This document shows, in pieces, positions 9,671 through 62,700 of a stretch of DNA of 64,000 bases. Both the position numbers and the translations under genes were made by a program. Numbering within the stretch: the stretch's first letter is position 1; each line of letters starts with the position of its first letter. This DNA comes from Acidobacteriota bacterium (lineage in GTDB: Bacteria > Acidobacteriota > UBA6911), in assembly GCA_012729555.1 (NCBI GenBank), contig JAAYCX010000012.1:86519-150518 (forward strand), given 5' to 3'. Under the pieces are notes generated by a model. The model searched no databases. It was not told where the DNA came from and worked only from the letters and a program-made list of their open reading frames with translations.

Positions 9671-10087
9671 TCACAGGAAGGGATTTTCGATCCGCAGGCC
9701 CGCGATGATCTGTTTGTTGTTCAGATCTTCCGAAAGAATCCTTGCAGCCCCGCTCCTGACGGCGGAAGCCACAATGAGGGCATCCCAGAACCCGATCCTG
9801 GCTTCGTCCTCGATCCGAAACGCCAGGTCGAGTTCAGCCGATGTGATGACGGCGCACCAGAGGGCATAGCTGGCAAGAATGAGACGCGCGGTCGGCTTCG
9901 GCAGGGGTTGCGCGATCTTGCGGGTCACATTCACGTAAAATTCCTGCAATACCTGGGTACTGAGAACTCCGCAGCGATCCGCCCACAGATCAAGAAGGAT
10001 GCCCTTTGCCCTTGCCTGTTTGGCCCCGGAATCCGCATCGTGCGCATAAATCAGCACATTCGTGTCAATAAAGGTCTTATCGCTCAT
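9671..10087 (-). CDS. vapC: Type II toxin VapC (PIN domain ribonuclease)
   Basis: FIDTNVLIYA N-terminal PIN acidic residue, conserved D/E residues, 138 aa, overlaps upstream antitoxin gene by 11 nt. Confidence 0.8.
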   Translation of the reverse strand: MSDKTFIDTNVLIYAHDADSGAKQARAKGILLDLWADRCGVLSTQVLQEFYVNVTRKIAQPLPKPTARLILASYALWCAVITSAELDLAFRIEDEARIGFWDALIVASAVRSGAARILSEDLNNKQIIAGLRIENPFL

Positions 10088-24115: not shown

Positions 24116-25399
24116 TCAGGACCCGGAGCGTTCGAAGCGCTCCCTCGACGCCCACAGCCCGAGGCCGGGGTTCGGGACGAAATAGACCTCTTCCCCGTCC
24201 GGCATCGTATGGTACCCCTCGGCGAGGGATCCCGGATCGTAGCGCCCGAGGGCGGCTTCCAGGCTGCCGTAACGGAAATGCACCCCCTCGACCTCCTCCC
24301 GCCGGAGCCCCCCGGGGCAGTAGGTGATCGAAAACCGCCCTTCCGAGGAACCATGGATGAGGTGGGCGGCGGCCGCGAGATTCCGCCCGAGTTCGCCGCC
24401 GGAGGCGACCTCCCCGAGGACGCGCTCCGTCCCCGCGTACCCGTAGCGCCGGATCAGACGGTCCATCCCGTCGTCCTCGCCGAACCGTTCGACGCCCGGG
24501 GCGATGACGAGCAGTTCCCCGCCGTCCTCGAGCGCCATGCGGGTCCGGTAGATGGCCTTGTTACCGAGCCAGGTGCTCTTGAACTCGGCGGGGTCGAGAT
24601 AGACCACCGCTTTCCGGAGCGGCCGGTCGAGGATCCGGACGTTGACCTCCAGCGCCAGCGCCGACGCCCGGAGATGGCACTCCGGCTCGTCGCCGATGAA
24701 GAGCCCGCGCACGACCGGCTCCCCCCGCCCGCCGGCGCCCACCACGGTCAGCACGTACACGATCGGCAGGTGGCGGGCGAAGCGCTCGGACTGGTAATCG
24801 AACACCCGGCGCACCGGGGTGTCGGCCCGGCCCAGGATCCGCTCCATGCCGAAAACGGCGCCCAGGAAATGGGTCTTGTGGATCGCCTCGGCCCCCCCGG
24901 CGCCCACGAACACGTTCTTGTTGTACCCCGCCATCCCCGCCACCTCGTGGGGGACCACCTGGCCGAGCGAGAGGACGAGGTCGTGCCCCCCTCGGGCCAG
25001 GAGCCGGCTGACCTCGGCCGGGATGGCGTAGCGCACCCGCCCCCCCGATACCTCCGCGACAAAATCTTCGGGCACCGTCCCGAGGCTGTCCACGCCGCGG
25101 CGCCAGTCGTGTTCCCGGAAGAGCCGGGCGGGCGTCCGGCCGAACATGCGGGAGATCTCCCCCGGCGTCATCGGCCGGTGGGTGCCCAGGGCGGGGAGCA
25201 CGTCCACGAGCGCCGGGCCGTAGTATTCGTAAAGGAGTTCGGTCAGGACCCCGGCCTGGGAATGCACGCGCGTGCAGTCGGGGGGGAGGGCCAGCACCCG
25301 CCTGCGGGGGCCCAGCCGGTCGAGGGCGCCGAAGAGCGCCTCCCTCAAATCCTCCCTTGAAAACACACGCCCCGAAGACCCGTCGCTCGCAAGTATCAT
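24116..25399 (-). CDS. LarA-like (DUF2088) lactate-racemase-family protein
   Basis: ~428 aa, overall resemblance to nickel-pincer LarA family; start at MILASDG chosen over long upstream extension. Confidence 0.45.
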   Translation of the reverse strand: MILASDGSSGRVFSREDLREALFGALDRLGPRRRVLALPPDCTRVHSQAGVLTELLYEYYGPALVDVLPALGTHRPMTPGEISRMFGRTPARLFREHDWRRGVDSLGTVPEDFVAEVSGGRVRYAIPAEVSRLLARGGHDLVLSLGQVVPHEVAGMAGYNKNVFVGAGGAEAIHKTHFLGAVFGMERILGRADTPVRRVFDYQSERFARHLPIVYVLTVVGAGGRGEPVVRGLFIGDEPECHLRASALALEVNVRILDRPLRKAVVYLDPAEFKSTWLGNKAIYRTRMALEDGGELLVIAPGVERFGEDDGMDRLIRRYGYAGTERVLGEVASGGELGRNLAAAAHLIHGSSEGRFSITYCPGGLRREEVEGVHFRYGSLEAALGRYDPGSLAEGYHTMPDGEEVYFVPNPGLGLWASRERFERSGS

Positions 25400-25586
25400 G
25401 AAGTTTTCCTGCCCGGGGGCCCTCCCCCGCATCCGTCGCTTATATGTATCCGAGAACGCGCAGCCGGCGCAAGCGCGGATTTCCGCCCCCCGATCCGCCC
25501 GATGGCCGCCCGGGGCTGGAATCGATTGACTATTCAGCCCTTTTGGATTATTAAAGACTCGCGCCCCTTCATGCAGAGACCCCGAC

Positions 25587-26672
25587 ATGGCTTCGAAAAT
25601 TCTGGCTGTCGATGACGACCCGCAGGTGGCAAAGCTGACAGTGCTGCTGCTCGAGGGGCTCGGGTACGAGGCGCTGGGCCTGACCGATCCCCGCCGGGCC
25701 CTCGACGCCGTCCGCTCCTTCCGGCCCGAAGCCTGCATCGTGGACCTCAACATGCCCTTTGTCTCCGGCTCCGACCTCCTCGACCAGATCAGGGCCGAGA
25801 GTCCGCACACGGAGGTCATCCTGCTCACCGGAATGGACGACACGTTGATCGCCGTCGATTTCATGAAGCGGGGGGCCGCCGACTTCCTCCTCAAGCCGAT
25901 CGGCGCCGAGCAGCTGGATGTCGCCGTCACCAGGGCCCTGGAACACCGGCGCCTGCTGCTGGAGAACGCCGCTTACAAACAGGGCCTGGAGGCGCTGGTC
26001 GAGGAGCGGTCGCGGGCGCTCAACGAAGCGCTCTCCAACCTGGGCGAACTCCACGAGGCCACCATCGAAACGCTGGCGCAGGCTTTGGACATGCGCGACC
26101 AGGGGAGCGGCGGGCATTCGCGCCGGGTGGCCGACATGACCGTGGGGATCGCGCGCCACCTGGGGATCCGCGACGGGCAGCTCGTGCAGATCGAGCAGGG
26201 GGCGCTGCTGCACGACATCGGCAAGCTGCGGATCCCGGACAGCATCCTCTGGAAACCTTCGGCCCTCACCCCCGCGGAATGGGACACGATGCGGCGGCAC
26301 CCGGAGTACGGGTACGAGTTCGTCAGCAAGATCGGATTCCTGAGGGGCGCGGCCGACATCGTGCTCTCCCATCACGAACGCTACGACGGCTCGGGGTATC
26401 CCCGCGGCCTCAAGGGGGACGAGATTTCGCTCGGCGCCCGCATCTTCTCCATGGTCGACACCATCGACGCCATCCTGTACGACCGCCCCTATCACCGGGC
26501 CTCCGCCTTCCCCGTCGCCCGGGACGAGATCCTCGGCAAAGCGGGCACCCACTTCGACCCCACCCTGGTCCGCCCCACTCTGGAACATCTGGAATCCTGT
26601 TTCCATAACCCCGGGCGGGCGCGCGGAGACGGGGAGGCCGCATCCAGGGAAAACAACGGAGGCCACCCATGA
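25587..26672 (+). CDS. Response regulator with HD-GYP phosphodiesterase output domain
   Basis: Receiver domain (DDD..., phospho-acceptor D in IVDLNMPF, K at LLKP); HD-GYP motifs HDIGK and DGSGYP. Confidence 0.85.
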   Translation: MASKILAVDDDPQVAKLTVLLLEGLGYEALGLTDPRRALDAVRSFRPEACIVDLNMPFVSGSDLLDQIRAESPHTEVILLTGMDDTLIAVDFMKRGAADFLLKPIGAEQLDVAVTRALEHRRLLLENAAYKQGLEALVEERSRALNEALSNLGELHEATIETLAQALDMRDQGSGGHSRRVADMTVGIARHLGIRDGQLVQIEQGALLHDIGKLRIPDSILWKPSALTPAEWDTMRRHPEYGYEFVSKIGFLRGAADIVLSHHERYDGSGYPRGLKGDEISLGARIFSMVDTIDAILYDRPYHRASAFPVARDEILGKAGTHFDPTLVRPTLEHLESCFHNPGRARGDGEAASRENNGGHP

Positions 26673-27418
26673 CAGGAAAAGAAGCAGTGCGCCTGGCGGC
26701 GGGGCTCGCCCTGTTTTTTGCCGGATGGGGCCGGGCCGTGGAGGAGGGGGCGCGCGGGCCGGACCACGCCGGGTTCCGGGAGTGCGCCGAGTGCCACGCG
26801 CAGCAGGACGCCGCCTGGCGGTCGTCCGCCCACAACCCGGCCACCGGCTGCCTGCGGTGCCACGAACCGGCGGCGAATTCTCCGGGCAGGCTGGCCGCGG
26901 AGCCGGAGGCCCTCTGCTCCTCCTGCCATTCCCAGCGGGCCGTGCTCAGGGGAACGGGGGCCGAGGGGATCGAGGAGACCCGCAGCTTTCACTCCGGCGT
27001 CGCCTGCGTCTCCTGTCACATGACGGGCGGCGGCCACGGCATGAAGCTGCTCCGTCCCGACGACCCCGCCCTGCCCGAGGACCGGGTCGACAGCTGCACC
27101 GCGTGCCACAAGGACAACAACCGGAATACGCGCGCGCGCCAGCTCCGGGACTGGCAGGCATGGTATCGGGAAACCATGGAACCCCTCCAGGCGGGCCTGG
27201 CCGAAATCGAAGCGCGGATGAAAGATCGTCCCGATCTCTTCACCGACGAGGCCCAGCGGAAACTCTCCGGCGTCCGGCGCAACCTCGCGATCATCGAGCG
27301 GGACGGCTCCGCCGGGGCGCATAACCTGGACTATGCCCTGGAAATCATGGCTCTGGCCTCCCGCCGGCTCAAGGAGATCGGTGCGGCGACGGCTCCCGCC
27401 GGGCTCGGGGGACAGTGA
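26669..27418 (+). CDS. Secreted pentaheme c-type cytochrome
   Basis: Signal peptide; five CxxCH motifs (CAECH, CLRCH, CSSCH, CVSCH, CTACH); start overlaps HD-GYP stop by 4 nt. Confidence 0.75.
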   Translation: MTGKEAVRLAAGLALFFAGWGRAVEEGARGPDHAGFRECAECHAQQDAAWRSSAHNPATGCLRCHEPAANSPGRLAAEPEALCSSCHSQRAVLRGTGAEGIEETRSFHSGVACVSCHMTGGGHGMKLLRPDDPALPEDRVDSCTACHKDNNRNTRARQLRDWQAWYRETMEPLQAGLAEIEARMKDRPDLFTDEAQRKLSGVRRNLAIIERDGSAGAHNLDYALEIMALASRRLKEIGAATAPAGLGGQ

Positions 27419-27437
27419 CCCACCGGCGATTCCTCAC

Positions 27438-28106
27438 CTATCTCGAGCGTTTGAGGCCGATCCGGGGGCAGAAGCGGGCGACCGGGCAGCGGCTGCACCA
27501 GGGGGAGGAGGGGACGCAGAGGTTCTGGCCGAAGGTGACCAGGATGTCGTTGAGGCTGATCCAATGGCGCCGGGGGAGCTTCCGGCGCAGGGCGGACTCG
27601 GTCTCGTCCGGGGTCCGGGTCGCCACGTAGCCCCACAGGTTGCAGATGCGGTGGACATGGGTGTCCACGCAGATGCCGTAGTCCCCGAACCCCACGGTGA
27701 GCACCAGGTTGGCCGTTTTCCTCCCGACGCCGGGCAGCGCGAGCAGCCCGTCCATGGACCGGGGCACCCGTCCCGAATGCTCCCGTTCGAGGCGGAGCCC
27801 GATCGCGACGAGGTGCGCCGCCTTGGTACGATAGAAGCCGACGGGGTAGATCAGCCGCTCCACCTCCTCCCGAGCGAGTCCGGAGAGCGCCCGTGGAGTC
27901 GGCGCCCGCCCGAGCAGGCGGCGCGAGGCGGCCTCGGTCACCTTGTCCCTCGTGCGCAGCGAAAGGACGGTGCTGACCAGGGTTTCGTAGGGGCGGTCGA
28001 CCGCCCCGTCGGCGATCACCCCCACCGCCGGGACTTTCCATAGAGGGAGTTCCCGCTTGAGCCGGGCCAGCACCCTGCCCAGCGTCCGCGTATCCATCCC
28101 TTTCAA
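27438..28106 (-). CDS. nth: Endonuclease III (DNA glycosylase/AP lyase)
   Basis: HhH-GPD region LPGVGRKTANLVL and [4Fe-4S] cluster C-x6-C-x2-C-x5-C at C-terminus. Confidence 0.8.
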   Translation of the reverse strand: MKGMDTRTLGRVLARLKRELPLWKVPAVGVIADGAVDRPYETLVSTVLSLRTRDKVTEAASRRLLGRAPTPRALSGLAREEVERLIYPVGFYRTKAAHLVAIGLRLEREHSGRVPRSMDGLLALPGVGRKTANLVLTVGFGDYGICVDTHVHRICNLWGYVATRTPDETESALRRKLPRRHWISLNDILVTFGQNLCVPSSPWCSRCPVARFCPRIGLKRSR

Positions 28107-28579
28107 GGAAGCGCCGGGATCTGGAAGACCGGACCGAGGGCCGAGCGTTTCGGGGCAAGGGCGCGCATGGAAGGCTCCGGGAGGAGTTCCAGGGGTTTGA
28201 TCCCCGACGGGGGGAGGGTGGGGCCGTTCCAGGTCATCATGCCACCGGCGTTGTACACCCGCTCGTAGCCTTCGGACGCCAGGTAGTTCGCCGCGAAGGC
28301 CGCGCGGCCGCCGGTCCGGCAGTAAACGACGACGGCCCGGTCCTTCGGGATCCGGGCCGATTCCCGCATGAAGGGCTCGGGCCAGGCGAGGTGGTAGGGA
28401 CGGCAGGAGTCGTTGCCGATGACGGCGTCGATTTCCTCGATCGTCCTCAGGTCGATAAGGATGAAGTCGAAAGCCGCCCCGCCGGACAGGAACCCCGCCA
28501 GCTGGCCCTGCGCCATCGGGCTGACGGCCGCGTGGCCCGCCGCAACCGCAAAAAGAATCAAAAGCAGGATCTTTTTCAT
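28103..28579 (-). CDS. Periplasmic rhodanese-domain sulfurtransferase
   Basis: Signal peptide MKKILLLILFAVAAGHA; active-site loop CRTGGRA; 4-nt overlap with nth start. Confidence 0.7.
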   Translation of the reverse strand: MKKILLLILFAVAAGHAAVSPMAQGQLAGFLSGGAAFDFILIDLRTIEEIDAVIGNDSCRPYHLAWPEPFMRESARIPKDRAVVVYCRTGGRAAFAANYLASEGYERVYNAGGMMTWNGPTLPPSGIKPLELLPEPSMRALAPKRSALGPVFQIPALP

Positions 28580-28716
28580 GAAATGTCCCTCAAAAACCGC
28601 ATTCTTGACCTGGATCAATCCCATCCGTCCCCCCTGTCTTCATTATTGCAGGTGTAGGGCGCAAAATAAACCCGCGGGTTGAGGATGCGCGATAACATGA
28701 AAAAGGAGGGGCGAAA

Positions 28717-29562
28717 ATGAAGCGCAACATAATCCGGATCGACCAGGAAAAATGCACCGGGTGCGGCCTGTGCGTGTCGGGGTGTCCCGAAGGCGCGCTG
28801 CAGCTCATCGACGGCAAGGCGAGGCTGGTGGGAGACCTGCTCTGCGACGGCCTCGGCGCCTGTATCGGCCAATGCCCCGAGGGGGCGCTGACGGTGGAGG
28901 TACGGGAGGCGGAGGCGTACGACGAAATCCGGGCGCTGGGCAACATCGTCCCCCAGGGGCCGAACGTCCTCGCCGCCCATCTCAAGCACCTGAAGGACCA
29001 TCGTCAGGAGGAGTACCTCCGCCAGGCCGTCGCCTACCTCGAGGAAAACGGGATCCCGTTCGACCCTCCCGCCGACAACGCCCCCGCCGCGCCCGCCGCC
29101 GGGTGCCCCGGGTCCCGGAGCGTAACCTTCGCACCCAGGAGAGAGGGGGAAAACGACGGGGCGAAACACCCCTCGAGGTTGACCCACTGGCCGATCCAGC
29201 TCCACCTGATCTCCCCGGCGGCCCCGCAGTACCGCGACGCCGACCTGCTGATCGCGGCCGATTGCGTCGCCTTCTCCCACGGAGACTTCCACCGGGACTT
29301 TCTCGAGGGGCGCGCCCTGGTCATCGCCTGCCCCAAGCTGGACGCGCGCCAGGAGGCCTACGCCGAAAAACTGACGGCCCTGATCGAGCAGGCCCGCTCG
29401 GTCCGGATTGCCATCATGCAGGTCCCCTGCTGCGGCGGCCTTCTCAACCAGGTGCTCCAAGCCGCCGCGCGGGCCGGGCGCAAGCCTCCCATGAGCTGCG
29501 TCGTCGTAGGGCTGGAAGGGGAAATCCTCCGCGACACCCCCGTGGAGGCGGGTGCGGCCTAA
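28717..29562 (+). CDS. 4Fe-4S dicluster ferredoxin-domain protein
   Basis: Two CxxCxxCxxxCP motifs (CTGCGLCVSGCP, CDGLGACIGQCP) at N-terminus; C-terminal domain with CC pair, unknown function. Confidence 0.55.
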   Translation: MKRNIIRIDQEKCTGCGLCVSGCPEGALQLIDGKARLVGDLLCDGLGACIGQCPEGALTVEVREAEAYDEIRALGNIVPQGPNVLAAHLKHLKDHRQEEYLRQAVAYLEENGIPFDPPADNAPAAPAAGCPGSRSVTFAPRREGENDGAKHPSRLTHWPIQLHLISPAAPQYRDADLLIAADCVAFSHGDFHRDFLEGRALVIACPKLDARQEAYAEKLTALIEQARSVRIAIMQVPCCGGLLNQVLQAAARAGRKPPMSCVVVGLEGEILRDTPVEAGAA

Positions 29563-29765
29563 TCCTCGAGGATGAAGGTGACCTTCAGCTGAACCCGGAA
29601 TTCGGTCACCCGGCCGCCGTCGTCGACGACCACTTCCTGGTTTTCGATCCAGGCGGATTTGACGTTCTTGAGGGTCTTGGAAGCGCGGGCGACCCCTTCC
29701 CTGATGGCGTCTTCAAAGCTCTTGGCGGACGATGATTTGATTTCGGTAACGCGTGCGATGGCCAT
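29559..29765 (-). CDS. Dodecin family flavin-binding protein
   Basis: ~68 aa, pattern IELIGSS...FEDAIREGVARASKTLKNV....E.....V.....V.LKV.F.LE typical of dodecin. Confidence 0.55.
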   Translation of the reverse strand: MAIARVTEIKSSSAKSFEDAIREGVARASKTLKNVKSAWIENQEVVVDDGGRVTEFRVQLKVTFILED

Positions 29766-29837
29766 GAGAGGCTCCTTTTGATAGAGGATTGAGGGAAAAG
29801 CTATGGATCCCATTGTACCACAAAGCCCGCGCGCGCG

Positions 29838-31523
29838 TCAGGATCGGGGTGGCGCGGCCGGGTAGCCCAGAGCGGCCAGCGCGTGCGGGATCGAGAGGTA
29901 TCGATAGGTCTCGCCGTATTTTTCCCCCCACCCGGCGTGCTCGACCAGGTCCCGCACCGGCCCCTTCATCCCGGCGAACGCGAAGCGGATCCCCTGGTGG
30001 GCGTACGCCTCCATGAGTTCCTCCAGTTCGTCGATCGAGACGGCGTCGATGTCGTTGACGCCCGAAAGATCGAGCAGGATCAGTTTCACCCCCGGACGCC
30101 CGGAGAGGTCCCCGGCCAGGCGGTCCTCCAGGAATTTCATGTTGGCGAAAAAGAGGGACGCGTCCGGCCGGAGAATCAGGACCTCGGGGTGGCGCTTCAC
30201 CTCCGGGTAACGGAGGACGTTGCGGAACACCCCCTCGCTCTCGAGGTACCCGAGCTCGGCGGTGTGCGGGTGCGAACTGCGCCAGATGAAAAGCCCCAGG
30301 GAGAAGACCATCCCGATCAGGAGCCCCCGATCGAGCCCCACGCCCAGGGTGCAGGCGAAGGTGATCAGGAGGATCGCCCCGTCCGATTTCTTGATCCGGA
30401 AAAGGCGGATGGCGTCGCGGGCGTCGATGAGGCCGACGACGGCCACGATGATGACGGCGGCAAGGACCGCGTTGGGGAGGTGATAGAACAGCGGAGTCAG
30501 AAAGATGAGGGTGAGCAGGATGAGGGCGGCCGTGACCAGCGACGCCACCTGGGTGCGCGCGCCCGACTGGTGATTGACCGCCGTCCGGGAGAACCCCCCG
30601 GTCACCGGGTAGCCGGAGGAAAACGCGGCCGCCATGTTGGCCGCGCCCAGGCCGATCAGTTCGCGGTTGGGGTCCACCTTGTACCCCGACTTCGCCGCCA
30701 TGTACTTGGCCACCGATATCGATTCCATGAAACTCACGAAGACGATGGCCAAGGCGTCCAGGAAGAGCTCCTGGATCGCCAGCGGGTTGAACGAGGGGAG
30801 CGACAGGGGCGGGAGGCCGCGCGGCACCTCCCCCACGGTCCGGATGCCGAGCTCCCCCCAGGTCCAGGTCAGCAGGGAGCCCGCGATGACGAAGAGGATG
30901 GCCGAGGGGAGCCGTGGATACATCTTCCGGAGCACTACCATCCCGGCGATCGAGGCGAGGCCGAGAACCAGGGTCGGCGCGTGGATGTCCCCCGCCCCGC
31001 GAACGATTTGCTCCAGCAGTTCGAAGACCGAATGCCCCCCGCCCCCTTCCACTCCCATCAAATGCCGGACCTGGCTCAGCGCGATGACCAGGGCGGCGGC
31101 GGCCGTGAATCCCCCGATGACGGCGTGGGAGAAGAAATTGATCAGGAAACCGAACCGGAGCAGGCCGGCCGCGAGCTGGAGGACGCCCACCATCAGGGCC
31201 AGCAGCAGCACCAGGCGCACGTATTCGGGGGAGCCCGGGGGCGCGAGGCGCGAGCAGGCGGACAGGGTGAGGAGCGAGGCCATCGCGACCGGGCCGACGG
31301 CGAGATGGCGCGAACTTCCCAGAAACGCGTAGACGGCGAGCGGGATCACCGAGGCATAGAGCCCGATGACCGGGGGCAGTCCCGCAAGCATGGCGTAGGC
31401 CATCCCCTGCGGCACCAGCATCACCGCGATCGTCAGCCCGGCGGCGGCGTCGGCGGAGAGATCCCCCCGGTCATAGCCCGGCAGCCATCCCCGGCGCCTG
31501 CGGGTGGAACGCGCCATGGTCAC
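29838..31523 (-). CDS. SulP family anion permease with C-terminal STAS domain
   Basis: SulP TM core and STAS domain (ILLDLSGVNDIDAVSIDELEEL); 561 aa. Confidence 0.85.
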   Translation of the reverse strand: MTMARSTRRRRGWLPGYDRGDLSADAAAGLTIAVMLVPQGMAYAMLAGLPPVIGLYASVIPLAVYAFLGSSRHLAVGPVAMASLLTLSACSRLAPPGSPEYVRLVLLLALMVGVLQLAAGLLRFGFLINFFSHAVIGGFTAAAALVIALSQVRHLMGVEGGGGHSVFELLEQIVRGAGDIHAPTLVLGLASIAGMVVLRKMYPRLPSAILFVIAGSLLTWTWGELGIRTVGEVPRGLPPLSLPSFNPLAIQELFLDALAIVFVSFMESISVAKYMAAKSGYKVDPNRELIGLGAANMAAAFSSGYPVTGGFSRTAVNHQSGARTQVASLVTAALILLTLIFLTPLFYHLPNAVLAAVIIVAVVGLIDARDAIRLFRIKKSDGAILLITFACTLGVGLDRGLLIGMVFSLGLFIWRSSHPHTAELGYLESEGVFRNVLRYPEVKRHPEVLILRPDASLFFANMKFLEDRLAGDLSGRPGVKLILLDLSGVNDIDAVSIDELEELMEAYAHQGIRFAFAGMKGPVRDLVEHAGWGEKYGETYRYLSIPHALAALGYPAAPPRS

Positions 31524-32077
31524 ACTCCAGATTTCTCCAGGAAGCAGAGAAGCGCGAAAATCGCTGCGGCCACGACCGCCACCACCACCCAGGCGTTGAG
31601 CTTGAGGATCTCGGGAATCGTCCGGGCGCCGAAATCCCCCCGCTCCAGGACCGGTTTCTGCAGGGCGGGATAGGCTGCGGCGAATATCCCGGCCCCGATC
31701 AGGATGCCGAGAACGCCGCCGAACAGGGCGTCGAGCGACCCCTGCCCCACCGCCCCCGCCGCCGTCCCCGGACAGTAGCCCAGGATGCCGAAGCCGAGTC
31801 CGAAGATCAGCCCGCCCGGGACGATGGCGCCCATGGACCCCGGCTTGGGGTGGAGCCGGGCCAGGCCCAGGCTTCGGAGGGCGTGGACCCCGATCATCCC
31901 GGTCAGGACGGCGCTCAGCATGATCTTGACCACCGTAAAATCCTCGAAGAGCAGCTGCCCGATGATGACGTCGAACCGGGTCGCCCCCCCCCTTTGGAGC
32001 AGGAAGCCGAAACCGATCCCCAGGAGGAAGCCCAAAGTCAGCTGCAGCCCTTTCCTGCCATGTATCGCCTCGAGCAT
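31520..32077 (-). CDS. YeeE/YedE family sulfur-compound transporter, second half
   Basis: 185-aa multi-TM protein with GxxxG-rich helices; RBS AAAGGGGGGG; ORF-track N-terminal extension rejected. Confidence 0.6.
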   Translation of the reverse strand: MLEAIHGRKGLQLTLGFLLGIGFGFLLQRGGATRFDVIIGQLLFEDFTVVKIMLSAVLTGMIGVHALRSLGLARLHPKPGSMGAIVPGGLIFGLGFGILGYCPGTAAGAVGQGSLDALFGGVLGILIGAGIFAAAYPALQKPVLERGDFGARTIPEILKLNAWVVVAVVAAAIFALLCFLEKSGV

Positions 32078-32088
32078 GCGCCCCCCTT

Positions 32089-32616
32089 TCAGAGCAGAAC
32101 CCGGTAGATCAGCATCGCGGTGGCGATGCCGCCGGCGAAGAAGCAGACGACGGCGAGCCAGCTGCTCGCCGCCAGCTGCAGCGTCCCGCTGATGCCGTGC
32201 CCGCTCGTGCACCCCCCGGCCCAGCGGGCGCCGATTCCCATCAGAACCCCGCCCGCCAAGGCGACGCCCCAGCGGAGGAGGCCGCTGTCTCCCGCCGCCT
32301 CGCGCCACAGCGGCGGGACCCAGGCCAGTCCGAACCCCCCCGAAAGGAGGGAGGAGAGCAGCGCCCCCAGGACGATGCCCACGACGAGCATCCACTCCCA
32401 GTCGATCACCGGGGCGAACTGCCGGTAATAGGGCTTCTCGACGACCCCTTTTCCCCTGAAGGCCTTTTCGATCATCCCGCTGCTGCGCGCGAACGCGGTC
32501 GAACAGCCGATGGGCTTGTCCGAGAGCAGGAAAGCGAGCCAGCTCAAAACGCCGATGCCGGCCCCGACGGCGTAGGGCGACCAGCGTTCCATCGTCAGCC
32601 AATGCAGCCAATCCAT
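32089..32616 (-). CDS. YeeE/YedE family sulfur-compound transporter, first half
   Basis: Conserved GCTSGHG motif, ~5 TM. Confidence 0.65.
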   Translation of the reverse strand: MDWLHWLTMERWSPYAVGAGIGVLSWLAFLLSDKPIGCSTAFARSSGMIEKAFRGKGVVEKPYYRQFAPVIDWEWMLVVGIVLGALLSSLLSGGFGLAWVPPLWREAAGDSGLLRWGVALAGGVLMGIGARWAGGCTSGHGISGTLQLAASSWLAVVCFFAGGIATAMLIYRVLL

Positions 32617-32673
32617 GGCAACCTCCCGAACCCGATAACGGTTTTCGTCTCCCCCCTCCCCGAGGCGATGTTC

Positions 32674-34086
32674 CTACGAGGTCCTCGGGACGTGCGGCGC
32701 CACGCACATGGGACATTCGGGGCTGAACCCCGCGGCGCTGTATCCCGTCATGCCGCCGGCGACGTTGCACACGTTCGCAAAACCCGCCTGCTTGAGCAGG
32801 GAGGCCGAAAGGCTGGAGCGGTGCCCCGTGCTGCAGATCACGGCCACCGGCCGGCTCTTCTTCAGGGAACCGTGCCGGGTACGCAGGTCGGGAGCGGGAA
32901 TATTGACGGCGCCCTCGATATGAACGGCTTCGTACTCGCCGGCGGCCCGCACATCGACCAGCGTGAGTTCCGACCGCCCTTTCATGAGCTGGTTCAATTC
33001 CCGGACCGAAACCTGCGGCACGTGCCCGGTCGGGAGCCCTTGGCGCGACCACTCGAACATGCCGCCGTCGAGATACCCCACGACGCGGTCCAGGCCGACG
33101 CGCCGGAGCAGGACGCCGGCCTCGTAGGCCTCCTCGCCCGATCCGGCCACGAGCAGGATGTCGTGGTCGGGCGGGAGGACCCAGCCGGCGAAGGTGGAGA
33201 AATTCCCGCTGATGTCGATGTTGTACGCGCCGGGGACATGCTGCCCGCCGAAGGCGTCGTAGCTCCGGATGTCGAGCACGATCGTGTTCTTCTTTCCCGC
33301 GGCCTTGCTGAACCGCGCGGGGTCCATCAGGAGAATGCCGGGGAGGGTGTGGACCCTGGCGGGCCCCTTGCCGTTGATGGCGCTGCAGCGGCTGAAATGG
33401 TCCGGGGCTGCCGGCATGTCGGTGGTCAGCGAGCGGATGAACTGCTCGCGGTCCGGGATCTGCAGCGCCGGGTTGCAGCGCCGCTCGTACCCGATCGTCG
33501 TCCAGCGTTTCGCCCCCATGGCGCGCCCGCAAAGGCTGCCGGCGCCGTGGGCGGGATAGACGTCGCAGAAATCGGGAAGCGCCATGAGCTTGCCGTGGAG
33601 GCTGTCGTAGAGCTTATGGGCCAGATCGCGCGCCTTGCCGGGGAAGAGGTCGGGCCGGCCGACGTCGCCGACGAACAGGGTGTCCCCGCAGAAAACGGCC
33701 GCCGGCTCCTTTCCGCGGCTGCGGTCGGTGACGACATAGCTGATATGCTCCGGGGTATGGCCCGGGGTCTCCAGCACCCGGATGCTCATGTTTTCGATCC
33801 GGAAACTGTCCCCTTCCGCGACCGCGCGGTGCCTGAAGCGGCATTTGGCCGATTTGGGGGCGTAGATCACCGCCCCGGTGGCGTCCGCCAGGTCCAGGTG
33901 CCCGGAAATGAAATCGGCATGCAGATGGGTTTCCAGGATATGGGTGATCTTCATCCCCATCTCCTCCGCGGCGTGCAGGTACACTTCGATGTCGCGCTGC
34001 GGGTCCACGATGGCACAGGTGTCCGTCCCGCCGAGGAGGTAGGAACTGTGCGCAAGGCCTTTCACGAAAAACTGTTCTACATACAT
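32674..34086 (-). CDS. Persulfide dioxygenase (MBL fold) fused to tandem rhodanese domains (CstB-like)
   Basis: MBL metal motif THLHADFISGH, two rhodanese domains with C-terminal catalytic CSTGHRS. Confidence 0.8.
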   Translation of the reverse strand: MYVEQFFVKGLAHSSYLLGGTDTCAIVDPQRDIEVYLHAAEEMGMKITHILETHLHADFISGHLDLADATGAVIYAPKSAKCRFRHRAVAEGDSFRIENMSIRVLETPGHTPEHISYVVTDRSRGKEPAAVFCGDTLFVGDVGRPDLFPGKARDLAHKLYDSLHGKLMALPDFCDVYPAHGAGSLCGRAMGAKRWTTIGYERRCNPALQIPDREQFIRSLTTDMPAAPDHFSRCSAINGKGPARVHTLPGILLMDPARFSKAAGKKNTIVLDIRSYDAFGGQHVPGAYNIDISGNFSTFAGWVLPPDHDILLVAGSGEEAYEAGVLLRRVGLDRVVGYLDGGMFEWSRQGLPTGHVPQVSVRELNQLMKGRSELTLVDVRAAGEYEAVHIEGAVNIPAPDLRTRHGSLKKSRPVAVICSTGHRSSLSASLLKQAGFANVCNVAGGMTGYSAAGFSPECPMCVAPHVPRTS

Positions 34087-34285
34087 ATCTCATCTCCTGT
34101 CTGAGGTGCGTGGGAAAGATGCCGATCGATCATCTCGTTCTTTTACCCTAAATCCGAGCCCCCTGTCATCGCAAATCGGCGCCGGCGGCCCGGCCGCGGG
34201 GGGGTTGACACGTCCCGCGGGCCGATGGACAATGCCATCGGCCCCCGCTTCGGGGAGCGCGCACAGGACAAGGAGAGCATCCCCC

Positions 34286-37389: not shown

Positions 37390-39423
37390 TCACTTTCGGG
37401 CATCGTCCAGGCTTTCCGCGGTCAGCGACGCGATATCGATGACACGCATGCTCTCGTCGACATTGAGCAGCTTCAGCGAATCCCCGAGCATGTGCATGCA
37501 GTAGGCGCAGCCGGTCACGATCGTATCCGCACCCGCTTCATGCGCCTGCCGGACGCGCAGGTTGTTGATCCGCTCCCCCCGCTTCAGGTCCATGAAATAA
37601 TGCCCTCCCCCCGCGCCGCAGCAGAGGCTCTTTTCGCGCCTGTTTTTCATTTCGGCGAGCTCCGCGCCCGGGATCGCCCGGAGCACCGAGCGGGGGGCGT
37701 CGTAGATCCCCTGGTAGCGGCCGAGGTAACAGGGGTCATGGTACACCATCCGCCCCCTCCCGCTCCCCGGCCGGATCCTGCCGGACGCCATCAGCCTCTC
37801 GATGTACTCGGTGTGGTGAACGACATTGTACGAGGCCCCGAACTGGGGGTATTCGTTCTTGAAAACGTTATAGCAATGGGGACACCCGGTCAGGAGCGTG
37901 TGGAACCCGCGCTGTCCGAGCAGCTCGATCTGTTCCCGGGCCGCCTGCTGAAACACCATCTCCTGCCCCAGGATACGGGCGGGGTCGCCGCAGCACCTCT
38001 CGTCCGCGCCGAGAACGCCGTAATCCACGCCGCAGCGCTCTAGCAGGCGGCAAAGGTCCTCGGCGATCCTGTGCTTCTGGGGATCGAACGTCACGCAGCA
38101 GCCGATCCAGTACAGGACATCGACCGACTCCCCCGGCTTGACCACGCGCAGCCCGGCCCGTTCGATCCAGTCGGTCCGTTCCGACTGCGGGCCGAAGGGG
38201 TTGCCTCCGGTCTCGAACAGGCGCAGGGCGCGGCCCGCTTCCTCAGGAATGCGCCCCTGGATCAGCACCTCGTTGCGCCGCAGCTCCATCAGGGTATCCA
38301 CGTGCTCGATCATGGCGGGGCAGACCTCCACGCAGGCGGCGCAGGTCCGGCAGTGCCAGATGAACTCCTCGTCGAACGCCCTGCCCACGATATCGGCCTT
38401 CTCCCCCTCCTCCGCGCCCGCCGCCTCGTCGAGCTGGGCCTTCATGCGCGCGATCAGCTGCCGCGGGGAAAAATAGTCCCGGTCCGCCATGTAGGCGGGG
38501 CAGACCTCGTCGCAGCGTCCGCACAGGATGCAGGCGTCCAGGTCCAGGCGCTGCTTCCAGCTGAACTCCTCCGGTTTCTGGATCCCGATCCGGATCTCCT
38601 CGCTTTCGGCGCTCTCCATCAGCTTCTCGATGTCCTGGCGCCGGAGCTCCCCCCGCGGCCCGAGCTTGGAGAGGAAGGCGTTGGTCGGCAGCGCCAGCAT
38701 GTGAAAGAACTTGGTGTAGGGAATGAGGGCGATCCAGCCCATGACCAGGACGGTGTGGAGCCACCATAGCGCCGCATGCGCCCCCCGGGCGGTTTCCCCG
38801 GCCATCCCCGCAAAAATCGGGCTGAGGCCCCACCCCACGAACGAGAGCTCCTTCCAGGGATCCCCGTTGGCCCCGATCCTCGCCCCCTCGACCAGGTAGC
38901 CGGTCACGACCAGGGCGGCGACCAGGAGGAGCACCAACCCGTCTTCACGGGCGACGGGGAGCGTCCCCGGCCTGGCGACATACCGGCGCCAGGCGGCCAT
39001 GCCCAGGCCGGCCAGGATCAAGAGCCCGGCCAGCTCGCTCGCCACGGAAAAGAAGACGTAGACCCCCCCCTTGAAGATCTCGAGATCCAGGCCGAACAGG
39101 AGGTTCCCATCATACTGGACCATGACGATCAGGGTGGTGATGAAAAGAACGAGGAAGGAGTAGAAGAGCAGGCCGTGCAGGAGTCCCGGGTAGAAATTCC
39201 GGCGCACCCGGTTCTGGAGCAGCGTCTCGCCCAGGAGGATCTTCAGGCGCTTTCCCCAGTCGGAAAATCTCTCGCCGTCCTCCTTCCCCCGGCGCCAGGA
39301 CCGCACGCGCCGGCACATTCCCCAGGCAAAGACGGCGACGGCAGCGGCAAACAGCACATACATCACCCAGGCCTGGGAGACATTCCACATCAGGGGGCGG
39401 GTAGCTTCGGAAAGGGGGGGCAT
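37390..39423 (-). CDS. Membrane-bound Fe-S oxidoreductase: NarI/HdrE-like cytochrome b fused to HdrD-like 2x[4Fe-4S] plus CCG domains
   Basis: N-terminal ~6 TM with conserved His; ferredoxin motifs CILCGRCDEVCP and CRTCAACVEVCP; CCG motifs (CCVTFD, CCGDP, CPHC, CCGAGGG, CAYC). Confidence 0.75.
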   Translation of the reverse strand: MPPLSEATRPLMWNVSQAWVMYVLFAAAVAVFAWGMCRRVRSWRRGKEDGERFSDWGKRLKILLGETLLQNRVRRNFYPGLLHGLLFYSFLVLFITTLIVMVQYDGNLLFGLDLEIFKGGVYVFFSVASELAGLLILAGLGMAAWRRYVARPGTLPVAREDGLVLLLVAALVVTGYLVEGARIGANGDPWKELSFVGWGLSPIFAGMAGETARGAHAALWWLHTVLVMGWIALIPYTKFFHMLALPTNAFLSKLGPRGELRRQDIEKLMESAESEEIRIGIQKPEEFSWKQRLDLDACILCGRCDEVCPAYMADRDYFSPRQLIARMKAQLDEAAGAEEGEKADIVGRAFDEEFIWHCRTCAACVEVCPAMIEHVDTLMELRRNEVLIQGRIPEEAGRALRLFETGGNPFGPQSERTDWIERAGLRVVKPGESVDVLYWIGCCVTFDPQKHRIAEDLCRLLERCGVDYGVLGADERCCGDPARILGQEMVFQQAAREQIELLGQRGFHTLLTGCPHCYNVFKNEYPQFGASYNVVHHTEYIERLMASGRIRPGSGRGRMVYHDPCYLGRYQGIYDAPRSVLRAIPGAELAEMKNRREKSLCCGAGGGHYFMDLKRGERINNLRVRQAHEAGADTIVTGCAYCMHMLGDSLKLLNVDESMRVIDIASLTAESLDDARK

Positions 39424-39695
39424 ACTTCAAACCTCTCTTTCTTTTCTGTTCTTTGTCCCGAGGGTCATGGCACCGTGAGCATGGGTCGAACGCACTTCCA
39501 TCCCGTTACAAAATGATCCATTTTACCCTAATCCACGGCCTTCAGGAAGACCGCTTCCGGTAAATCAGGGGAGTATACCCACCCGGAGCCCGTCCGAAAA
39601 GGAGGAATCGGCGGTGGAATCCCCCGGGCATTTCTGGTTAACTCAGTCCGGGGCCGTCGCCCCGCGGATATTGTCACCCGAGAGGAGCCCATACC

Positions 39696-45488: not shown

Positions 45489-45769
45489 TTCTTTTCCCGC
45501 CCCTCTTCTTCGGGTTCTCCGGACGTGTCCGGATCCCCCAGGAACAGATCCAAAAGCCGGCACTTGTCCAGGTTCTCCAGCAGTTCGAGGTCCTCGAGGA
45601 TCGCGCGGTTGCGCAGGATCTCCCTCTGCTCCGCCGTGAGCGGGGGCGGATTGCCGGGATTTTTCGCCTCTTCCCTCTCCCCTGCCAGCGCCACCTCCGC
45701 GCCGAGGACCAGCAGCAGAACCCAAAGCCCGCTCTTGCCCATAAACACCCGCCTAGTTGATGGCTTCAT
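45485..45769 (-). CDS. Small secreted hypothetical protein
   Basis: 94-aa ORF with signal peptide between anti-sigma and DUF3106 genes. Confidence 0.35.
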   Translation of the reverse strand: MKPSTRRVFMGKSGLWVLLLVLGAEVALAGEREEAKNPGNPPPLTAEQREILRNRAILEDLELLENLDKCRLLDLFLGDPDTSGEPEEEGREKK

Positions 45770-46250
45770 CCTGCGCGAGGGCTCCGAGATCGGCTATCGT
45801 CTCGAAGTCCTCGAGCAGGTCCAGGTGGTGGAGCACCCCCATATCCTTAAGGATGGCCACGGTCTCCTCCATCCCCGGCTCGACGGCTGGACCGGACATC
45901 GTCCTCGCGCCCCAGGGGAGCCGGCCGAGAATCACGCCCAGGAGCACGACCAGGACGAGGGCGCCCGCACCGGCCAGGTGCCCGGGCCGCGCCCACGTCA
46001 CGCTCCACCAGGGAGCCCGCCCGGCCTCCCGCCGGCGGTCCAGTTTCCGGTAAAACCCCCGGGCGAAGTCCGCGGAGGGCTCGACCTCCTCCGCCATCCC
46101 GGGGAGGACCTCCACCCATTCCTCGGGCGTAAGCCTGGCGGAGCAGGAGGGGCAGGACAGGAGATGCCTGCGGGTCTCCCGCGCCTCGCCGGCGGGGAGT
46201 TCCCCTTCCATGAGGGCCTTCAGGTTGTCCACGGCCAGTTTGCAGTTCAT
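45753..46250 (-). CDS. Anti-sigma factor (zf-HC2, single TM)
   Basis: HLLSCPSC zinc-finger motif, one TM helix, 4-nt overlap with sigma gene. Confidence 0.65.
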   Translation of the reverse strand: MNCKLAVDNLKALMEGELPAGEARETRRHLLSCPSCSARLTPEEWVEVLPGMAEEVEPSADFARGFYRKLDRRREAGRAPWWSVTWARPGHLAGAGALVLVVLLGVILGRLPWGARTMSGPAVEPGMEETVAILKDMGVLHHLDLLEDFETIADLGALAQDEAIN

Positions 46251-46897
46251 GGTTTTCTGTACTCCGGCAGCATCGGGGCCAGCCGCGCCGCCAGGGCCTC
46301 CCTCGCCCGGTGGATCATCGATTTCACCGCCTTCTCACTCGTCTTCATCACCTCGCCCACCTCGGCGTACGACAGTTCCTGGTACTTGTTCAGGATGAAG
46401 GCCGCACGCTGCCTGTCGGGGATCAGGGACAGGGCCTCGGCGAGCGCGCGGGCGATCGCCTGCCGCTCGAGGTCCCGGACCGGATCGGGATCCGTCCGCA
46501 ACTCCCGGTGTGTCGCCACGGCCGCTTCGGGAGAAGCGTCGATCGACCGGCGGGCGGCGCGGAACCAGGGTCTCCGGATCTCGTTCAGGCACACATTGGT
46601 GGCGATCCGGTAGAGCCAGGTGGTGAACTTCGCCGTCGGCCGGTACCGGTCCGCTCCTTCGTACACCTTCAGCAGGATCTCCTGCGCCAGTTCCTCCGCC
46701 CTTTCGCGGTTATGGACGAAGCGGGAGGCGAAACGGATCAGGGGCCTCGAATGGCGCGCAAACAGGGCCTCGAACGCCCCCTCGTCCCCCGCCTGGAACA
46801 GGAGCATCAGTTCGGTATCACGGTCTCCCGCCGGCGCTTCTTCCGTCATGAGGAAATCATCGTCCCAGTCGAGGGCCCATTCCATTTCACGCCTCAA
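46247..46897 (-). CDS. ECF (sigma-70 family group IV) RNA polymerase sigma factor
   Basis: Region 2 (FTTWLYRIATNVCLNEIRR) and region 4 HTH (LSYAEVGEVMKTSEKAVKSMIHRAR). Confidence 0.8.
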   Translation of the reverse strand: MRREMEWALDWDDDFLMTEEAPAGDRDTELMLLFQAGDEGAFEALFARHSRPLIRFASRFVHNRERAEELAQEILLKVYEGADRYRPTAKFTTWLYRIATNVCLNEIRRPWFRAARRSIDASPEAAVATHRELRTDPDPVRDLERQAIARALAEALSLIPDRQRAAFILNKYQELSYAEVGEVMKTSEKAVKSMIHRAREALAARLAPMLPEYRKP

Positions 46898-48288: not shown

Positions 48289-49848
48289 ATGACAGGTTCT
48301 GAAAGAGACAATTCCGGCGCTAAAAGGGAAAAACGCCCGCCGGCGGCACGGGAGGGTGGACCGTCCGCTCCTTTCGGCGAAGCGGAATGGCGCCGGATGA
48401 AGGAGGAGCTGGAGTATTCCAACACCCTGATGCGGACCCAGCAGGAATGCGCCCTGGACGGCATCCTGGTGGTGAGCGAGGACGGGAGGATCGTTTCGTA
48501 CAATCGGCAGTTTGTGGATATCTGGAAGCTCCCCGAGGAGATCCTGGCCTCGCGCTCGAACGAACGGGCCCTCGAGTACGCCTCCCGGCTGGTGCTGAAC
48601 TGCGAGGCCGCCAACGCCGTGGTGCGCGGCCTGTACGAAAACCGCAGCAGCAGCAGCCATGACGAGGTTCAGCTTCGGGACGGCAGGGTGCTGGACCGGT
48701 ACTCCGCCCCCCTGGAGGCGGCCGACGGCCGCTTCTACGGGCGGGTGTGGTATTTCCGCGACATCACCGCCCAGAAGAGGGCGGCGGAGCGGATCCGGCA
48801 GGCCAACGAGCGCCTGCGCGCCACGGTGAGCCAGCTGAAGGAACAGAAAAAACAGAGCGGCATCCTGAGCGAGATGCGCGAAATATTGCAGGCCTGCGAC
48901 TCCACCTCGGAAGTCGGGTCGATCGTGCGGAGATCGATGCTGAAGCTGTTCCCGCATGCATCCGGGGCCCTGTACATGATGGCCGAATCAGGCCGGGAGC
49001 TCGAAGCCGTCGATGCCTGGGGTCCGGGCGCCGATGTTGCAGGACCGCGGAGTTTCCCGACGGACGATTGCTGGGCGCTGCGGCGCGGGCGCCTCCACCT
49101 GGTGGACGAACCCGGTATGGGTCCCGTGTGCGCCCACCTGCGAAAGGGACCCCGGGCCCCCTCGGCCTGCGTGCCGCTCGCGGCCAAGGGTGAGGTCCTT
49201 GGGATCCTTCACCTGCGGGTGGAGGAGGGCGCCCCTGACGGAATCCAGGCCCGAACCACCGGACAGATCGGCAGGCTGGCGACGACGATCGGCGAATACC
49301 TGTCCCTTTCCATCGCCAACCTCCGGTTGCGCGAGCGGCTGGCCGAACAGTCGATCCGGGACCCGCTGACGGGGCTGTACAATCGCCGTTACATGGAAGA
49401 AGCGCTCGCGAGGGAGATCAGCCGGGCCGAGAGAAACCGCACCCCCGTCGCCCTCGTCATGATGGACATCGACCATTTCAAGCCCTTCAACGACCGGTAC
49501 GGTCACCCGGCCGGAGATGCGCTGCTCGAGAGCCTGGGCGCTTTCCTGAAAACGAACCTCCGGGGAGGGGACGCCGCCTGCCGCTACGGCGGGGAGGAAT
49601 TCATCCTGTTCCTGCCCGACACCTCCCTGGAGGGGGCCCGCCGGAACATGGAGCGGATCAGGAAGGGGATCGGGAGCCTCCGGATCTCCCACATGGGACT
49701 GACGCTTCCCCCTGTGACCCTGTCGATGGGAGTCGCCGTCTACCCGGACCACGGCCGGGATATGGGGGCTCTCATCGGGGCGGCGGACGCGGCCCTGTAC
49801 CGGGCCAAGAAGGAGGGACGCAACCGCATACTCCCGGCCGCGGGCTGA
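48289..49848 (+). CDS. PAS-GAF-GGDEF diguanylate cyclase
   Basis: PAS-like (ILVVSEDGRIVSYNRQFVDIW), GAF-like middle region, GGDEF active site RYGGEEF with I-site RxxD. Confidence 0.8.
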   Translation: MTGSERDNSGAKREKRPPAAREGGPSAPFGEAEWRRMKEELEYSNTLMRTQQECALDGILVVSEDGRIVSYNRQFVDIWKLPEEILASRSNERALEYASRLVLNCEAANAVVRGLYENRSSSSHDEVQLRDGRVLDRYSAPLEAADGRFYGRVWYFRDITAQKRAAERIRQANERLRATVSQLKEQKKQSGILSEMREILQACDSTSEVGSIVRRSMLKLFPHASGALYMMAESGRELEAVDAWGPGADVAGPRSFPTDDCWALRRGRLHLVDEPGMGPVCAHLRKGPRAPSACVPLAAKGEVLGILHLRVEEGAPDGIQARTTGQIGRLATTIGEYLSLSIANLRLRERLAEQSIRDPLTGLYNRRYMEEALAREISRAERNRTPVALVMMDIDHFKPFNDRYGHPAGDALLESLGAFLKTNLRGGDAACRYGGEEFILFLPDTSLEGARRNMERIRKGIGSLRISHMGLTLPPVTLSMGVAVYPDHGRDMGALIGAADAALYRAKKEGRNRILPAAG

Positions 49849-52602: not shown

Positions 52603-52684
52603 ATTCCCTGATTGCAACGGTTCCCCCCCATCGTCAAATGAGATACAATGCATACCTCGACCGCGTTGGCGGGTGGGGAGAGCG

Positions 52685-62564: not shown

Positions 62565-62700
62565 GCCTCCAGCATACCTCATCCCGACTTCCCGGGCAGG
62601 GCAAAATCGGGCCGCGTCCGGGAGCGGGGATCGCCCCGGGCGAGGTTGCAATGAAGGATCGGATTCTCTATGATGTGCCTTTCCAAACCGGGGAGTTGCC

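Follow-up and report, generated by a model that had tools for sequence, protein, structure and literature searches.

What should be made of a cytoplasmic response regulator of the HD-GYP type whose gene runs, by four nucleotides, into that of a multiheme c-type cytochrome: do the two form a circuit linking cyclic di-GMP (c-di-GMP) signalling to periplasmic redox chemistry, or has rearrangement happened to bring two backbone genes together? The pair lies on the plus strand of a 64-kb stretch of DNA from an uncultured member of the Acidobacteriota (hereafter ‘the window’, to which all unprefixed positions refer; 66.9% G+C), where we confirmed both open reading frames (ORFs), the regulator at 25587–26672 (361 amino acids) and the cytochrome at 26669–27418 (249 amino acids). 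The 4-nt ATGA overlap reported in an earlier note on this DNA is real, being a direct reading of the sequence (...GGC CAC CCA TGA CAG...), and the identities that the note gave to the two genes also held up, but its further step, from the pairing to a redox- or electron-acceptor-responsive c-di-GMP circuit, proved unsupported: adjacency of the genes is not conserved, the overlap is derived, no kinase is encoded with them in the 64 kb and the cytochrome lacks the open-site heme positions of its closest solved relative, OcwA. We consider it probable that the pair is a by-product of rearrangement in one acidobacterial lineage, that is, an orphan regulator and a pruned electron carrier with no dedicated redox/c-di-GMP circuit.

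The pair is narrowly distributed among relatives. Direct adjacency is limited to the closest relatives, those whose regulators are at least 91% identical to that of the window. Loci L001–L003 (regulator 92%, cytochrome 82% identical) have identical synteny and the same ATGA overlap, and in L053/L054 (91% and 81%) the regulator ends ...YLKR-TAG at 341 amino acids and an 83-nt spacer stands in place of the overlap, followed by the cytochrome and endonuclease III. The cytochrome is missing from this position in L047/L048 (GCA_016934555.1; regulator 89%), which has the same synteny of PfkB, 6-phosphogluconate dehydrogenase, LarN and regulator and where the regulator stop lies ~20 bp from that of endonuclease III, as well as in L056 (LSQX01; regulator 88%), which reads regulator, endonuclease III, rhodanese. 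In three more distant relatives the two genes are 1.4–4.1 kb apart, with opposite-strand genes between them, and so belong to separate transcription units: L046 (regulator 75%) has a minus-strand aldose epimerase between regulator and cytochrome, and then glutaminyl-tRNA synthetase (GlnRS); L049/L050 (76%) has the epimerase (minus), a small ORF (minus) and fucose isomerase between them, and then PAS, GlnRS, FapA, endonuclease III (minus), DUF169 and rhodanese (minus); and a 7019-bp JGI contig (73%) has three opposite-strand sugar genes and a small ORF between them. Finally, L051 (73%) has the same backbone and no cytochrome, and L052 (70%) has no family cytochrome within 10 kb of the regulator, with a family member ~170 kb off on the same contig. 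Adjacency and co-orientation across independent lineages, the test we applied for an operon, were thus not found.

The wider families give a similar picture from both sides. A scan of 185,579 species-representative genomes for the cytochrome yielded 39 loci, ~35 of them clear family members, and tblastn with the regulator found a REC-HD-GYP gene in none of these ~35 (6-kb flanks); the neighbourhoods of homologues P0006 and P0110 likewise held no regulator. Conversely, among 80 metagenomic loci with regulators 39–88% identical to ours and available flanks of up to 10 kb, a family cytochrome occurred in none, including seven in which regulator identity is 66% or more and 3 kb or more of sequence is available downstream. 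Two candidates for a conserved pairing, HD-GYP genes ~2 kb 5′ of the cytochrome in L015 and L026, were rejected, as they are stand-alone, lack a REC domain, are 33–35% identical and are also cut off from the cytochrome by an opposite-strand aldo/keto reductase gene. For the most part, then, the pairing does not extend beyond the closest relatives and looks to have arisen by chance. As a separate matter, the best cytochrome identity in the GTDB-based species-representative genomes does not exceed 50%, although relatives 82% and 99% identical occur in public metagenomes; the genus-level lineage to which this DNA belongs seems unrepresented among species representatives.

How the junction came about can be read from the regulators themselves. 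Over their core (the first 335 amino acids), identities are 94% between window and L001, 93% between window and L047 and 96% between L001 and L047, compared with 92% between L053 and L056, 88% between window and L056 and ~76% to L046 and L049. Since the cytochrome-less L047 nests with the window and L001, and the cytochrome-less L056 with the spacer-bearing L053, this branching shows that, inside one clade of genus level, the cytochrome was probably lost from this position twice, each time independently. A 341-residue form ending ...LEHLES-YLKR and stop is common to L053 and L056, and a variant of it to the 341-residue orthologues L046, L049 and L051; the regulators of the window, L001 and L047 instead continue as ...LEHLESCF and then 20–27 divergent residues. 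On this comparison, the overlap arose when the ancestral stop of the regulator was lost, its frame now running on through 20 codons of poor conservation. Between window and L001 this tail is 50% identical compared with 94% for the core, and its ratio of nonsynonymous to synonymous substitution rates (dN/dS) is ~1.8 (from 20 codons, a small sample), as against 0.14 for endonuclease III, 0.17 for the core regulator and 0.42 for the cytochrome.

The window and L049 are collinear, with genes for GH3, a metallophosphatase and endonuclease III in the same order and orientation, and the shared backbone can be written as GH3, metallophosphatase, regulator, a variable sugar-catabolism island, cytochrome, a group of PAS, GlnRS and FapA genes, endonuclease III and rhodanese. 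Regulator and cytochrome would originally have been backbone genes on either side of the island; loss of the island would have left the cytochrome directly behind the regulator with an 83-nt spacer; loss of the regulator stop would then have let the frame run on to the cytochrome start, yielding the ATGA overlap; and the cytochrome would have been deleted in some sublineages. This order of events (island loss, stop loss, overlap, cytochrome deletions) is the most parsimonious that we can draw from the comparison, and its outcome would be a young, lineage-specific two-gene transcription unit. Judged by these alignments, the junction is recent, derived and dispensable. Within this backbone, a 112-residue stand-alone PAS protein is encoded just 5′ of GlnRS in L049 (L049:15245-15583) and L051 (L051:18176-18514); its gene starts 16 nt past the cytochrome stop in L049, is kept in L051 despite the missing cytochrome, and is not in the window.

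The signals around the junction were considered next to this history. Four-nucleotide ATGA overlaps are the commonest overlaps of co-directional prokaryotic genes, and for this reason the overlap alone is not beyond chance. Nor do we favour an annotation artefact, in which the cytochrome would start 15 nt past the regulator stop at an in-frame GTG (26687; M-R-L-A-A-G...) and no coupling would occur: that GTG, the codon for V7 just before the hydrophobic core, would still leave a workable signal peptide, but no start codon of the ORF precedes the ATG at 26669, which follows GGAGG at a distance of 6 nt (ATG and GGAGG alike are kept in L001), the gene callers of public collections give the 249-residue form (P0001, P0002), and in L054 the homologue opens with an ATG and a similarly basic N-region, all of which makes the alternative start very improbable. 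The LarA-N-like gene upstream is divergent (minus strand, start near 25399; the homologous Lar_N gene in L002 was called at 427 amino acids) and the endonuclease III gene downstream is convergent, its stop 19 nt from that of the cytochrome, so that regulator and cytochrome would stand as a self-contained pair. A search of 25200–27700 gave no sigma-70 consensus promoter and no convincing internal terminator or promoter. A terminator-like hairpin and T-run on the plus strand (26695–26720), 23 nt past the regulator stop and within the signal-peptide codons of the cytochrome, was rejected as an attenuator: its stem has 5 bp, one such site was found in 25200–27700 where 1.2 are expected by chance, and the T-run is broken in L001. 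An Rfam scan of the whole window matched no family, cyclic-dinucleotide riboswitches included. On the arrangement of these genes, regulator and cytochrome are probably co-transcribed in the window lineage, and their translation may be coupled.

A circuit of the kind proposed would call for a kinase, and none that fits is encoded within the 64 kb. Pfam scans of ~50 candidate ORFs (those of high G+C at third codon positions, GC3) gave no HisKA domain and no kinase-type HATPase_c domain, the sole HATPase_c match being topoisomerase VI B, and phmmer detected REC and HD-GYP domains nowhere else in the window. A phmmer kinase search with fragments from L004 and L051 was set aside in favour of these scans, the fragments being N-terminal pieces without an ATPase domain. 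The PAS-GAF-GGDEF protein to which the earlier note had drawn attention (48289–49848) does exist and has both a GGEEF motif and an RxxD site, and its gene lies 21 kb from the pair in an unrelated neighbourhood. D53 of the orphan regulator would presumably be phosphorylated by a kinase encoded elsewhere, controlling the HD-GYP phosphodiesterase.

Taken together, these data bear on the first reading of the locus as a functional module that ties periplasmic redox state or electron-acceptor availability to c-di-GMP turnover, with translational coupling enforcing stoichiometry. Such a module would be consistent with the ATGA overlap and good Shine-Dalgarno sequence kept in L001–L003 and with the fact that both genes lie near each other in L046, L049 and the JGI contig, and it has a precedent in Geobacter, where cyclic-dinucleotide control of cytochrome-based respiration is reported (PMC6456294). 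We nonetheless regard it as unlikely, since a periplasmic cytochrome could reach a cytoplasmic receiver only through a membrane kinase, which these 64 kb do not encode; two losses of the cytochrome are seen among relatives whose regulator is still 88–93% identical; the genes are separate transcription units in more distant relatives; co-occurrence in the wider families is 0 of ~35 and 0 of 80; the overlap arises from an unconstrained read-through tail; and the cytochrome lacks open-site heme positions. The titles and abstracts that we searched describe no HD-GYP/multiheme-cytochrome operon. There is a slim chance that an accidental single transcript has been co-opted, locking expression of a five-heme carrier to a c-di-GMP phosphodiesterase regulator in this lineage, in which case the control acting on the shared promoter, whatever it is, would at once switch respiratory electron flow and set off biofilm dispersal or motility. 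The features on which these arguments draw are collected in Table 1.

Table 1. Positions of the regulator–cytochrome unit, its parts and its flanks in the window.
Feature	Position	Strand	Remarks
Divergent intergenic region, LarA-N-like gene / regulator	25400..25586	.	Presumed site of the two-gene unit's promoter
REC-HD-GYP response regulator, 361 aa	25587..26672	+	Pfam Response_reg 7e-23, HD_5 2.6e-35; predicted phosphorylation-controlled c-di-GMP phosphodiesterase
Receiver (REC) domain, aa 5-114	25599..25928	+	PF00072 Response_reg 7e-23; D9/D10, phospho-acceptor D53, T81, K103
HD-GYP domain, aa 162-327	26070..26567	+	PF13487 HD_5 2.6e-35; H177, HD 209-210, H238, HHE 262-264, D267, GYP 270-272
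Regulator C-terminal read-through tail, 20 codons, aa 342-361	26610..26669	+	Not in 341-aa orthologues
Shine-Dalgarno-like GGAGG	26658..26662	+	6 nt 5′ of cytochrome ATG, within regulator tail; kept in L001
ATGA start/stop overlap	26669..26672	+	Regulator TGA 26670-26672 over cytochrome ATG 26669-26671, read from sequence
Five-heme c-type cytochrome, 249 aa	26669..27418	+	Five CxxCH; pruned member of OcwA/NrfA-type multiheme family; dN/dS 0.42 vs L001
Signal-peptide-like N-terminus, aa 1-23	26669..26737	+	K4/R8, hydrophobic aa 9-20 (Kyte-Doolittle ~2), G-R-A; cleavage site presumed
Heme motif 1 CAECH (C39-H43)	26783..26797	+	Aligns with OcwA heme 1 context CxxCH...W..S.H
Heme motif 2 CLRCH (C61-H65)	26849..26863	+	
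Heme motif 3 CSSCH (C83-H87)	26915..26929	+	
Heme motif 4 CVSCH (C113-H117)	27005..27019	+	Followed by invariant M118
Heme motif 5 CTACH (C143-H147)	27095..27109	+	
C-terminal three-helix bundle, aa 152-240	27122..27388	+	Signature DGSxGAHNLDYALE; AlphaFold2 helices 152-186, 193-212, 217-240
Endonuclease III gene, convergent	27438..28106	-	Pfam HhH-GPD; backbone anchor outside the unit; syntenic in L001, L048, L054, L056, L049

The regulator is what the earlier note took it to be, an HD-GYP response regulator and putative c-di-GMP phosphodiesterase, with REC and HD-GYP domains and the full set of motifs (HHERYDGSGYP at residues 262–272). In an alignment with nine orthologues (A2), D53, T81 and K103 are invariant and D9/D10 are conserved in at least 90% of sequences, and the HD-GYP metal ligands (H177, H209-D210, H238, H262-H263, D267) and G270-Y271-P272 are all invariant. 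From these residues the enzyme is predicted to degrade c-di-GMP under the control of D53 phosphorylation. Its orthologues include dozens of proteins from metagenomes or metagenome-assembled genomes (MAGs) annotated as Acidobacteriota and 66–76% identical over their full length, and in the more distant relatives examined no co-directional gene lies immediately 3′ of the regulator, which therefore appears to be transcribed alone there. Conserved in sequence with or without the cytochrome, the regulator is, on this comparison, an orphan.

The cytochrome carries exactly five CxxCH motifs (C39, C61, C83, C113 and C143), invariant or nearly so in alignments A1 and A3, and is the sole CxxCH-bearing candidate ORF in the window. 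Its description as a ‘secreted pentaheme cytochrome c’ is accurate as to the five motifs and the signal-like N-terminus, but ‘secreted’ is better worded as ‘exported to the periplasm’, for which we predict a Sec-type route. Some 120 homologues were found, all of them unnamed ‘CXXCH cytochrome family’ proteins in size classes of ~245, ~290 and 380–415 amino acids; the few with an organism name come from Acidobacteriota, Deltaproteobacteria or Thermodesulfobacteriota MAGs. In A1 the C-terminal half is invariant (three heme motifs and the helical region with DGSxGAHNLDYALE), and the number of hemes varies after heme 1. The A1 profile matched PDB entry 6I5B with E=5.6e-33 and 6QVM with 8.9e-22, followed by octaheme nitrite reductase, c554, MccA and NrfA, and the single sequence matched 6I5B with E=6.8e-11. 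This entry is OcwA of Thermincola potens, a nine-heme cell-surface terminal reductase whose penta-coordinate hemes 2 and 5 are putative active sites, whose heme 9 is His/Met-ligated, and whose hemes 5–9 superimpose on NrfA and are accompanied by a C-terminal three-helix bundle (PMC6703420). Going by the CxxCH motifs, the three-helix bundle and the significant similarity to a solved member, the window cytochrome is a member of the OcwA/NrfA-type superfamily.

The cytochrome also appears to have been pruned. Six-heme syntenic orthologues (L046, L049, P0007) contain an additional CYGCHSTEGF that aligns with CLKCHSAEAY of OcwA (heme 5); from the window clade this heme-bearing segment of ~42 residues is missing, which points to derivation from a six-heme OcwA/NrfA-type ancestor by its loss; five-heme forms have also arisen independently in other lineages (P0016, P0065, P0080). 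Equivalents of OcwA hemes 2–5 are missing from the cytochrome, no CxxCK motif is present, and the lack of open-site positions argues against a role in ligand sensing. Four non-motif histidines (H55, H108, H123, H218) and M118 are invariant among homologues and, if we assign them as distal ligands, are exactly enough for five six-coordinate hemes, for which reason the cytochrome would be a pruned carrier of electrons in the periplasm, most likely all-six-coordinate and with no open catalytic or ligand-binding heme, and not an enzyme or sensor.

Elsewhere the cytochrome family has a different partner. Clustering of the flanking ORFs of the 35 cytochrome loci gave one dominant neighbour, a 380-residue protein that tblastn found in 23 of ~35 loci at 65–84% identity across Acidobacteriota and Desulfobacterota, placed either divergently 5′ of the cytochrome or 31–50 nt 3′ of it on the same strand (for example, L032:6577-7731, L026:4091-5233 and L015:3808-4953, from loci ranging over L009-L040). 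It matches Pfam Aldo_ket_red and has C-terminal 4Fe-4S-like cysteine motifs and a twin-arginine-like N-terminus (TAT_signal below the cut-off), which suggests that aldo/keto reductase and cytochrome form a periplasmic oxidoreductase/cytochrome redox pair. A full-text search of the literature found no description of a twin-arginine-exported (Tat) aldo/keto reductase paired with a multiheme cytochrome, and the window contains no homologue of the reductase.

It might be asked whether the cytochrome is simply a dispensable remnant nearing loss, deprived of its catalytic heme and its reductase partner and riding on the regulator transcript. It is the fastest-evolving gene of the neighbourhood (82% identical to its L001 counterpart, compared with 91–94% for most neighbours and 85% for LarN, and with a dN/dS of 0.42 compared with 0.14–0.17), has been lost twice in sister lineages, has been pruned from six hemes to five, and has no reductase partner in the window. 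That dN/dS is nevertheless well under 1, nothing is missing from the five CxxCH motifs, the four invariant histidines, M118 or the C-terminal signature, and the independent five-heme forms elsewhere imply that the pruned form is viable, so that we think decay of this sort improbable.

Several observations weigh against reading the pair as a by-product of rearrangement that joined an orphan regulator to a pruned carrier. In several lineages the two genes remain within a few kilobases of each other despite rearrangements, which selection for linkage could also explain, and the overlap and its Shine-Dalgarno sequence are kept in two lineages that differ by a synonymous divergence (dS) of ~0.2. 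At a dN/dS of 0.42 relative to L001, the cytochrome is still under purifying selection and is not junk. The relatives are metagenomic contigs, and L047/L048 and L056 are judged cytochrome-less at this position but may carry a copy elsewhere. In the AlphaFold2 model the helix-bundle block is well predicted (predicted local distance difference test, pLDDT, mostly 82–95), with a whole-protein mean pLDDT of 65.9, but the heme domain is of low confidence, being poorly modelled without cofactors, and a fold search of the model against the PDB gave no match at E<=0.001, its top non-significant matches being octaheme nitrite reductase and NrfA. Co-transcription, coupling, export, heme ligation and phosphodiesterase activity are, moreover, alike deduced from sequence.

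The finding is ordinary in that both genes belong to known families and their pairing is not a conserved system, and its significance for signalling is small. It does offer a caution: genomes of high G+C readily gain ATGA overlaps between unrelated backbone genes when intergenic DNA is lost and a stop codon then disappears, and such an overlap by itself is not to be taken as a sign of functional coupling. Two results obtained on the way may be worth more than the gene pair itself. One is the pruning of an OcwA-like cytochrome from six hemes to five, documented here, which removed the heme at an active-site position; the other is that members of this cytochrome family are so often encoded beside a putatively Tat-exported aldo/keto reductase with Fe-S motifs, a pairing that is strongly conserved.

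Other genes of the window deserve brief mention. Beyond endonuclease III, a sulfur-handling neighbourhood (28103–34089) encodes a rhodanese with a hydrophobic signal-like N-terminus, a 4Fe-4S protein, a dodecin, a SulP/STAS transporter, a YeeE/YedE-type (Sulf_transp) protein and a metallo-beta-lactamase–rhodanese fusion; it belongs to the same conserved backbone, differs in orientation from the cytochrome, and in L001 has two adjacent Sulf_transp genes. A 678-residue fusion on the minus strand (37390–39426) joins a nitrate-reductase-gamma-like membrane heme-b domain to a 4Fe-4S dicluster and two CCG domains (DsrMK/HdrD-like) and is possibly a membrane quinol:heterodisulfide-type module. On the plus strand, a single stop-free ORF of 2318 codons (52535–59491) has a DUF748/YhdP/TamB region (residues 51–1563), three POTRA repeats and a C-terminal Omp85 barrel (residues 1818–2318), and from this domain order looks like a fusion of TamB and TamA (translocation and assembly module) in one polypeptide. 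A topoisomerase VI subunit B-like gene (62674–64000, plus strand; HATPase_c and Topo-VIb transducer), an archaeal-type enzyme in a bacterium, is cut by the window end. An extracytoplasmic function (ECF) sigma factor with an adjacent zf-HC2 anti-sigma factor (45753–46897, minus strand) and a PIN-domain toxin gene (9671–10087, minus strand) are ordinary and unrelated to the gene pair.

Among known systems, the regulator is closest in design to the REC-HD-GYP response regulators RpfG of Xanthomonas and PA4781 of Pseudomonas, whose architecture and catalytic and phospho-acceptor motifs it matches throughout. RpfG is encoded beside its kinase RpfC, whereas the window regulator has no kinase within 64 kb and, unlike regulators of this type, bears an unconstrained 20-residue C-terminal tail. 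Its best NCBIfam match, covering residues 5–338, is NF053512 (NosR-family response regulator c-di-GMP phosphodiesterase), to which it does not belong (192.3 bits, far under the 400-bit cut-off), and no nitric oxide-sensor gene was seen near it. For a link between cyclic dinucleotides and multiheme cytochromes, the conceptual precedent is the cyclic GMP-AMP (cGAMP) system of Geobacter, in which GacA and cGAMP riboswitches are reported to control cytochromes of extracellular respiration (PMC6456294); there the link is a riboswitch 5′ of the cytochrome genes, whereas nothing in this window matches Rfam.

The cytochrome can be placed more closely. It shares a superfamily, and the C-terminal helical bundle, with NrfA and the octaheme nitrite reductases, and like NrfA it has five hemes, but not the same five: the NrfA active-site heme position is deleted here, and neither CxxCK nor another active-site heme is present. 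A Pfam Cytochrom_C552 match over residues 108–189 is weak (score 17.6, cut-off 24.1), and the protein is not a member of the NrfB pentaheme family (TIGR03146; 16.4 bits, E=0.0083, cut-off 166.6 bits). OcwA has nine hemes in 526 residues compared with five in 249, is displayed on a Gram-positive surface where the window cytochrome is predicted to be periplasmic in a diderm, and retains the segments of hemes 2–5 that the latter lacks, and with them the open-site hemes 2 and 5 and their His-His pockets. What the two have in common is both ends of the molecule: the N-terminus PDHAGFRECAECHAQQDAAWRSSAH aligns with the heme 1 context of OcwA (CxxCH...W..S.H), and the last four heme motifs, including CHM, are shared together with the C-terminal bundle, which aligns with OcwA residues 402–497, and its DGSxGxHN.D signature.

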